Positions 49,071 through 49,883 of a stretch of 64,000 bases of DNA are shown here, piece by piece (positions within the stretch are counted from its first letter, which is position 1; every line of letters starts with the position of its first letter). A model generated the notes under the pieces. That model saw nothing but the letters and a program-made list of their open reading frames with translations, did no database searches and was not told the origin of the DNA. The DNA comes from Escherichia phage vB_EcoM-RPN226. A program made the translations under genes and the position numbers. The stretch is taken from the sequence record OL770073.2. One strand, given 5' to 3'.

Positions 49071-49883
49071 TTATTCGACCTTCTTAAATTTGCAATTGTC
49101 AAAATGGTATCTTTTAGCGTGAGACTTATCCATGATTTTAGAACAATGCGGGCATTTTAATTTTTCTCTGCTATGAGATACACCCGTGATAACTTTGCAT
49201 TTATCGCCGTGGTATTTTCCATAATTTCCTACATCACATATAATTCCACAATGTGGACAATTTCTTTTTTCGACTTTTGCAAGACCCTTAGATAGTTTAT
49301 TTAAATACTTTTCGTATTTTTGGGGGTCGCTTTTAAGCTCAAACCAAAAATCTTTCATTTGTTTAGAACATCTTTCTTTATATTCTAACATTTCGTTTTC
49401 TGACAGCGATTCTAAATATTTCACAGAAGCTTTTTGAATATTTGCATTAACTTCTTTTCTCTTTTCATCTGTCCATAAAGATTTAGTTTTTTTAATACCT
49501 TTTCCAGCTTTTTTAATTCGTTCCTTCTTTAAATTTGGTGGTAGATTTGCCCAAAACTTTTTAGTGGTTTCTGATCTAATTTTGGACGTTTCCTCTTTAA
49601 TCCATCCGTAATCTTTACTTACAATTCTCTGTTCTTTTGTACCCTTGGAGAATTTTATTAAGGCATAAGCCATTTCAGAATTTCGGTGTATTTTAAAAAG
49701 AAGCTCATGCGCAAAATAATGTTCTCTTGCTGTCAGTAAAACCTTATTTTCTCTAGAGTCATCTCCTCCCATAGATTTTGGGACAATATGGTGTGATTCC
49801 GTATAATAATCTAATTTTTTCTTATTGAGACCTCTTTTAAGAGATCTTTCTATAAGAGAGTTGTAAATTTTAGTATAATTCAT
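49071..49883 (-). CDS. HNH homing endonuclease with I-TevIII-like C-terminal zinc-finger repeats, inserted between genes 13 and 14
   Basis: 270-aa ORF; YTESHHIVP...REHYFAH HNH motif; two CPHCxxxxDxxxxxKxH(G/F)DxCK repeats; ATG overlaps the gene 13 stop. Confidence 0.78.

Follow-up and report, generated by a model that had tools for sequence, protein, structure and literature searches.

Two described HNH endonucleases of T-even phages are the closest to the gene analysed here, namely MobE, encoded at the nrdA/nrdB junction, and I-TevIII, encoded in the nrdB intron of phage RB3. MobE nicks a neighbouring gene, and the phages carrying it are polymorphic at the nick site; mobE itself is promoterless, and its start overlaps the upstream stop codon (PMC2790892, PMC2988022). 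I-TevIII possesses CX2CX12-13HX3C fingers that bind zinc, are required for DNA binding and hold the dimer interface (PMC1865063). The table of T4 endonucleases in PMC2988022 contains no element between genes 13 and 14. In this study, we analysed a 64,000-nucleotide (nt) stretch of the genome of Escherichia phage vB_EcoM-RPN226 (record OL770073.2; hereafter the window), a T6-like Tequatrovirus whose best long matches are 96-97% identical, and focused on an intact open reading frame (ORF) of 270 amino acids (aa) located between the neck genes 13 and 14. We consider it highly probable, on the basis of sequence comparisons, that this ORF is an active homing endonuclease gene. As a free-standing HNH endonuclease gene, it would undergo intronless homing at the 13/14 junction of T-even (Tequatrovirus) phages.

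The endonuclease gene is located on the minus strand at positions 49071-49883 and is the orthologue of T6ORF154. Its ATG (49883-49881) shares bases with the TGA stop codon of gene 13 (49882-49880), forming the sequence ATGA, and its TAA ends at 49071, which leaves a single base (49070) before the ATG of gene 14 at 49069. An interpretation made previously from the letters alone, hereafter the sequence-only reading, had already described a 270-aa ORF here, with an ATG overlapping the gene 13 stop and an end one nucleotide before the gene 14 ATG; all of this was confirmed, and the strand, which had been left unstated, is the minus strand.

A 2.5-kb query spanning gene 13, the endonuclease gene and gene 14 matched 504 phage records, 46 of which covered it fully. 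The tblastn search with the protein gave the same number: it was present at ≥95.7% identity in exactly 46 records, in every one between genes 13 and 14, and the next-best phage matches showed only 30-37% identity and lay at other loci. The carriers (46 of about 504 Tequatrovirus records) include three T6 records, in which the gene is annotated as T6ORF154. Several records are GenBank/RefSeq duplicates, and carriage is stated here as about one genome in eleven. The T4-type empty junction, in which the gene 13 TAA is followed by one base and then by the gene 14 ATG, was found in at least 467 records with ≥90% identity over 64 nt. It is present in T4, T2, RB27, RB68, PST, Sfk20, KMB40, Pu-Krd-SF4 and HMD-9, so that the ORF is not the universal and syntenic one that would have spoken against the sequence-only reading. 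Judged by these comparisons, the gene lies between conserved genes and is precisely absent from a part of its close relatives. One carrier, T4_ev151, was considered as a possible laboratory acquisition and rejected; its wac region is only 57-91% identical to that of T4, it is no T4 derivative, and it therefore supplies no experimental evidence of homing.

Furthermore, three metagenomic orthologues with 52-59% identity and the same architecture were identified directly upstream of gp14 on divergent T4-like contigs, whose gp14 is 70-78% identical to that of the window. In two contigs, which extend sufficiently far upstream, the orthologue is preceded by the 3′ end of gp13; the remaining contig is cut there and still reads ...PPFGILLG*. 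These orthologues occupy the same 13/14 slot, which makes the lineage site-specific across genera.

To compare the junctions base by base, seven carriers and nine non-carriers (16 junctions) were aligned over 1,701 nt of genes 13 and 14, with the empty junctions of T4, T2, RB27, RB68, PST and HMD-9 among them. The empty junction reads CCTCCA-TTTGGAATTTTGGTAGGT-TAA-T-ATG or, with its variants, ...CCTCC(A/G) TTTGGAATTTT(G/T)GTAGGT TAA T ATGGCT..., and the occupied one reads CCTCCG-GTGGGAGTGTTAGTTGG-ATGA or, with its variants, ...CCTCC(A/G) GTGGGAGTGTTAGTTGG ATGA..., followed by the endonuclease gene and then by ...GAATAA T ATGGCT.... No seam is visible at the right boundary, since TAAT precedes the gene 14 ATG both where the endonuclease gene ends and, in empty genomes, where gene 13 ends. 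On the left side, a recoded 3′ end of gene 13 (49880-49900, minus strand) travels with the endonuclease gene. It differs from the empty genomes by eight substitutions, all within the final 21 nt of this gene (nt 910-929, codons 304-309; window 49881-49900). These eight positions are the sole sites in the alignment at which the carriers and the non-carriers have no base in common, and elsewhere in genes 13 and 14 the divergence between the groups equals the diversity within them. Moreover, a 55-nt probe of the recoded end gave matches of ≥90% identity in exactly 46 records, which are the carriers alone. Moonvirus CF1 was evaluated as a donor of the recoded end and dismissed; the probe had matched it through a GGATGA overlap of genes 13 and 14, and its gp13 has the ordinary end FGILIG.

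The recoding turns the gp13 end ...PFGILVG into ...PVGVLVG (F304V, I306V), changes the gene 13 stop from TAA to TGA with creation of the ATGA overlap, and generates a GGGAG 10 nt before the endonuclease ATG. At the opposite end of the endonuclease gene, AAGAAGG, located 9 nt before the gene 14 ATG, replaces the AGG of empty genomes. The C-terminal arm of gp13, made up of residues 301-308, is inserted between the clip helices of the portal protein gp20 (PMC12929587), and the junction therefore encodes a conserved and functionally constrained peptide. Such a constrained peptide is typical of the target of a homing endonuclease.

These observations suggest how the element might spread. The endonuclease would be carried by the late gene 13 message, and its translation would be coupled to the termination of gene 13 through the ATGA. 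In a co-infecting relative lacking the gene, the C-terminal pair of CCHC fingers would bind the conserved empty junction, which runs from the codons for the portal-binding arm of gp13 through the gene 13 stop to the start of gene 14, and the Mob-type HNH domain would then nick or cut nearby. Recombinational repair from the carrier would supply the recipient with a copy of the gene and of approximately the final 21 nt of gene 13, as the sequence patterns indicate. The carrier itself would be immune because the insertion splits the junction and eight of the last 21 bases of gene 13 are changed.

Whether the 13/14 junction itself is the cleavage target is a separate matter, on which we lean only slightly towards the affirmative, and several points weigh against it. 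Free-standing T4 endonucleases often cut hundreds of bases away from their insertion point (PMC2988022, PMC2790892), and therefore the target may not be the junction. Two of the eight substitutions are needed merely to form the ATG/TGA overlap, others create the GGGAG as a possible ribosome-binding site, and all eight could alternatively have been left over from the lineage of the original donor. Two of the three metagenomic orthologues follow an unrecoded gp13 end (...PPFGILIG* and ...PPFGILLG*) and a short spacer, and therefore the recoding is not required for carriage. In addition, the base-by-base comparison is limited to the 16 junctions described above, and our literature search found no experimental or descriptive paper on this endonuclease gene. 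Taken together, these points leave a real, though clearly smaller, chance that the element is an active homing endonuclease cutting at a distance inside gene 13 or 14, as SegG, SegF and MobE do, with the eight substitutions serving expression or representing donor-lineage relics. On the other side, no further fixed polymorphism between carriers and non-carriers was found in the 1,701 nt aligned from the two genes, and carriers would therefore have no protection at a distant target unless their immunity had another origin. The conversion-like tract described below, in which the window is compared with HMD-9, is likewise restricted to the last ~94 nt of gene 13.

The patterns of selection and spread were assessed by comparing four carriers (six pairs). 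The ratio of non-synonymous to synonymous divergence (dN/dS) of the endonuclease gene is 0.05-0.09, and the copies of the window and T6 differ by 21 synonymous and 6 non-synonymous changes. Among the carriers, the synonymous divergence (dS) is 0.013-0.19 in the endonuclease gene, 0.17-0.41 in gp13 and 0.09-0.36 in gp14. In all six pairs, gp13 has a higher dS than the endonuclease gene, and in five of them so does gp14, the exception being the window and T6 (0.150 in the endonuclease gene, 0.094 in gp14). Nucleotide diversity is 0.016 in the endonuclease gene, and flanking windows mostly show 0.03-0.1 (range 0 to 0.11).

HMD-9, which is without the endonuclease gene, is 96-99% identical to the window in surrounding blocks of up to 14 kb. 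In gene 13, the two differ by 11 mismatches in nt 1-836 and by 17 in nt 837-929 (the last 94 nt), whereas in gene 14 the opening 199 nt contain none and the first mismatch occurs at nt 200. This cluster of mismatches has the look of a short conversion tract that extends to one side only, into gene 13, and the sequences, at the population level, point to horizontal spread with flanking co-conversion. The carrier Pu-Krd-SF1 and the non-carrier Pu-Krd-SF4 were also examined as a comparator pair and set aside, the two not being isogenic near the site; HMD-9 is the better comparator.

Some copies of the gene are broken. An A7 run at 49487-49493 (minus strand) corresponds to a recurrent frameshift site, at which deletions occur in other copies. 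In phage FN, a 1-nt deletion in this run splits the endonuclease ORF; F1 and SHFML-26 gave the same two-piece protein match as FN and are apparently frameshifted likewise. CJY920 was also matched in two pieces, and a truncated metagenomic copy (P0005) is out of frame in the region of the run. These copies fit the cycle of gain, decay and loss of homing elements, although homopolymer sequencing errors are possible. They also lend something to the idea that the gene remains from an earlier invasion as a decaying or already inactive relic, which persists only because it is seldom lost precisely from the tight 13/14 junction, and T4 itself retains a defunct I-TevIII (PMC1865063). Against this idea, the window copy is full length with all catalytic and zinc ligands intact, and the dN/dS values show continuing selection on the protein. 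Furthermore, a dS below that of the flanks in most carrier pairs argues for recent spread and not for old vertical persistence. The strong purifying selection seen in these sequences makes a dead relic unlikely, and overall we regard this explanation as improbable.

The architecture of the protein agrees with the view that it is a homing endonuclease. It matches Pfam HNH_4 with 25.7 bits (gathering score 22; E 1.1e-5) and PHROG 655 'homing endonuclease' with an E value of 1.7e-52; no family was matched in the NCBIfam search, and the PDB sequence search returned marginal HNH matches only. In pairwise BLASTP, residues 1-115 and RB3 MobE share 45% identity over 116 aa (E 3e-24), which bears out the Mob-type HNH N-terminus proposed by the sequence-only reading. 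Residues 192-267 align only with residues 193-266 of I-TevIII (33% over 78 aa, E 1.4e-6), and the two C-terminal repeats claimed to resemble those of I-TevIII were found with the same spacing and at nearly matching positions (C209/C244 in the window protein, C211/C242 in I-TevIII). Outside these C-terminal 78 residues, no BLASTP alignment of the I-TevIII nuclease domain to the protein was obtained, and I-TevIII diverges across the HNH region in a multiple alignment. By these alignments, the protein is composed of two modules of different ancestry. The claimed likeness to I-TevIII therefore holds for the DNA-binding module and fails for the nuclease domain, and the combination of the two modules is commoner than had been implied. 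Mob-type HNH domains joined to CPHC...HFDNCK fingers are frequent in phage and metagenome proteins, and therefore the architecture is not unusual.

Four parts can be distinguished along the protein, all encoded on the minus strand. The HNH (beta-beta-alpha-Me) nuclease core comprises residues 1-66 (49686-49883), with Mob-type homology reaching approximately residue 115, and a Lys-rich helical linker with five predicted long helices comprises residues 89-203 (49275-49619). Then follow zinc finger 1 at residues 209-229 (49197-49259), a CX2CX12HX3C motif identified by motif scan that aligns with finger 1 of I-TevIII, and zinc finger 2 at residues 244-264 (49092-49154), which aligns with I-TevIII finger 2. 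Finger 1 reads CPHC-x12-HGDKCK from residue 209 and finger 2 reads CPHC-x12-HFDNCK from residue 244, so that both motifs match the CX2CX12-13HX3C definition of the I-TevIII fingers. In an alignment of 71 sequences, the HNH residues E29, H31, H32, N46, H55 and H59 and the finger 2 ligands C244, C247, H260 and C264 are invariant. An AlphaFold monomer model built from this alignment is confident, with a predicted local distance difference test score (pLDDT) of 92.5. In the model, strands 28-32 and 47-51 and helix 52-66 (pLDDT >93) form a beta-beta-alpha unit at residues 28-66, beyond which come five long helices (89-203) and two small hairpin-plus-helix knuckles. The best PDB matches in Foldseek were Cas8-HNH domains (probability 0.96). 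For the elongated whole model, structure searches were weak, yet pointed to HNH domains and zinc fingers. The sequence matches and the predicted fold together assign the protein to the HNH (beta-beta-alpha-Me) superfamily.

The endonuclease gene is flanked by gene 13 (49880-50809, minus strand), a 309-aa ORF encoding the neck protein and head-tail adaptor gp13, and by gene 14 (48299-49069, minus strand), encoding the neck protein gp14 (head closure), both named after the annotation of matching records. The gene 14 product is 256 aa long and begins with MATYDK, as in T4, T6 and other records; a longer, TTG-started ORF was discarded as a mechanical extension, the ATG at 49069 being the true start and the one at which other records begin. 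As for expression, no match to the T4 late-promoter consensus TATAAATA was found on the endonuclease strand between 45124 and 57211, and sigma-70-like promoter matches occurred at background level only. The start region of the endonuclease gene folds no better than shuffled sequences (z = 0.5). By analogy with the promoterless mobE, the gene is most likely read from a late message covering gene 13, and translational coupling to gene 13 would result in low late expression of the endonuclease. A strong terminator-like hairpin (TGGGGCCGCAAGGCCCCA then AAGGATTTTT) is located between wac and gene 13 (50822-50839, on the minus, coding strand), upstream of the block formed by gene 13, the endonuclease gene and gene 14, and no late-promoter consensus follows it.

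The position of the gene in the late morphogenesis cluster, with the terminase small subunit gene 16 three genes downstream, and its translational coupling to neck gene 13 would also suit a domesticated nuclease that takes part in completing the head or packaging DNA, comparable to the terminase-assisting HNH proteins of cos phages. Such a role is very hard to reconcile with the distribution of the gene, since approximately 90% of Tequatrovirus genomes, including those of T4 and T2, are without it and yet fully viable. Its closest characterised relatives, MobE and I-TevIII, are mobile endonucleases, and its homologues in other phages adjoin unrelated genes (nrdA, gp46/47, topoisomerase and uvsW). 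We thus give this alternative the least credence of all, as barely conceivable.

The window contains further endonuclease-like genes. Two of them are Mob-like HNH genes, one inside a split nrdA (2331-3041, plus strand; phmmer E 1e-21) and the other between uvsW and uvsW.1 (27873-28565, minus strand; phmmer E 1e-20), and neither encodes zinc fingers. The sequence-only reading had regarded these two and the 13/14 gene as three Mob-like paralogues. All three were indeed detected, and each abuts or overlaps a conserved gene as proposed; their homology, however, is limited to the N-terminal nuclease domain, in which the nrdA and uvsW proteins share 35-41% identity with the 13/14 endonuclease.

The split nrdA extends over 756-4020 on the plus strand, with the N part ending at 2285, the HNH ORF at 2331-3041 and the C part at 3031-4020. 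Its N part corresponds to residues 1-454 of RB3/T4 NrdA followed by a 23-aa tail, its C part consists of a 27-aa head followed by residues 453-754, and the break is located just past the active-site NLCCEIAIPTNDVNS. This arrangement resembles the 'genes-in-pieces' nrdA of Aeromonas phage Aeh1 (PMC2988022). The uvsW-associated HNH gene has a conserved first codon TTG, which overlaps the TGA stop of uvsW (TTGA). It is absent from HMD-9, which has a different endonuclease gene upstream of uvsW.

Three other ORFs were observed beside conserved genes. Directly after the tail sheath gene 18, an extra ORF of approximately 185-214 aa (42464-43108, minus strand), absent from HMD-9, encodes a CxxC...CxxC motif and has an HNH-like sequence (...LDHKVSIKYGF...N...) at its C-terminal end. 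This ORF gave no NCBIfam match and is probably another free-standing endonuclease gene. Between the capsid genes 23 and 24, where T4 has segD (PMC2988022), a 503-aa ORF on the opposite strand (34916-36427, plus strand) shows a weak Vsr-like match (TIGR00632, E 1e-3), and HMD-9 lacks the whole 1.6-kb segment holding it; the ORF may encode a homing endonuclease whose nuclease fold is Vsr-like. Just upstream of nrdA and on the opposite strand, a 243-aa ORF (65-796, minus strand) has a GIY-YIG-type N-terminus (KSGIYAIINTKTNKHYIGSA...) and probably encodes a Seg-like endonuclease.

The 13/14 element adds a clean T-even example of a homing endonuclease gene, at a site unlisted for T4. The gene is present in the classical phage T6, and empty target sites are available in T4 and T2. 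From our data, the limits of the mobile unit can be set with single-base precision, and the predicted target comprises 20-30 nt overlapping the codons of the gp13 portal-binding arm. The element could help to explain localised marker exclusion in the neck/terminase region, and, as a further system next to I-TevIII, it allows one to ask whether HNH enzymes are made to cut both strands by CCHC fingers. The general picture of phage homing endonucleases is unchanged.

The same 13/14 slot is used by an unrelated element in the Mosigvirus vB_EcoM-RPN187, in which a GIY-YIG (Seg-like) endonuclease gene is present (L012, 2050-2685). The RPN187 gene belongs to a different nuclease family, and there it is the gene 14 side that is recoded: its ORF starts with ATGGCAACATAC (MATY...), a copy of the gene 14 start, and the real gene 14 start is recoded to MSTYNSNLF, while the TAA stop of gene 13 is retained, as are its final bases of T4 type (...ATTTTGGTAGGTTAA). 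Therefore, two endonuclease families use this junction, each recoding a different side. On a more speculative view, which we think doubtful, the protein may be a hybrid of a Mob-type nicking HNH domain and I-TevIII-type dimerising fingers, whose dimer makes double-strand breaks and which links the Mob enzymes to I-TevIII; its cassette would spread the F304V/I306V form of gp13, and the junction would be contested by HNH and GIY-YIG elements.

Zinc-finger Mob-like HNH genes also occur in T4-like phages of Klebsiella, Enterobacter, Cronobacter and Acinetobacter and in metagenomes. Like the 13/14 endonuclease, they combine a Mob HNH domain with one to three CPHC...HFDNCK fingers, and they show 30-37% full-length identity to it and 40-45% identity in the finger region. 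They differ in their insertion sites (beside gp46/47, nrdA and other genes), and most of them contain NUMOD3 linker repeats, whereas the linker here is helical and Lys-rich and gave no NUMOD3 match.

The endonuclease shares with I-TevIII two CX2CX12-13HX3C fingers and a nearly identical length (270 and 269 aa, respectively). In contrast to the intron-encoded I-TevIII, it is encoded between two complete genes, and the Rfam scan of the window revealed no family at threshold, group I introns included; moreover, the I-TevIII nuclease domain does not align with it. On these alignments, the protein is not a member of the strict I-TevIII family, having no intron and another nuclease domain, and it shares with that family the zinc-finger DNA-binding module.

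The resemblance to MobE extends from the N-terminal HNH domain to the genomic habit. Both genes are free-standing and without a late-promoter consensus of their own, both have a start codon overlapping the upstream stop, and both are located between conserved genes with variable occupancy, their carriers being polymorphic beside the gene (PMC2790892, PMC2988022). The differences concern the DNA-binding module, which here consists of two CCHC zinc fingers, and the site, which is absent from the five T4 mob sites of PMC2988022. The two Mob-like paralogues in the window differ from the 13/14 protein in having a region of NUMOD3-like repeats, followed by a short C-terminal segment that is conserved, and no zinc fingers. 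The nuclease activity of the 13/14 protein is a predicted one. Databases already label the protein 'homing endonuclease', and it is an uncharacterised, well-preserved but ordinary member of the known Mob-type class. The homology of its nuclease domain, its genomic habit and its population signature, as read from the sequences, indicate that it belongs with the Mob-type free-standing HNH genes.

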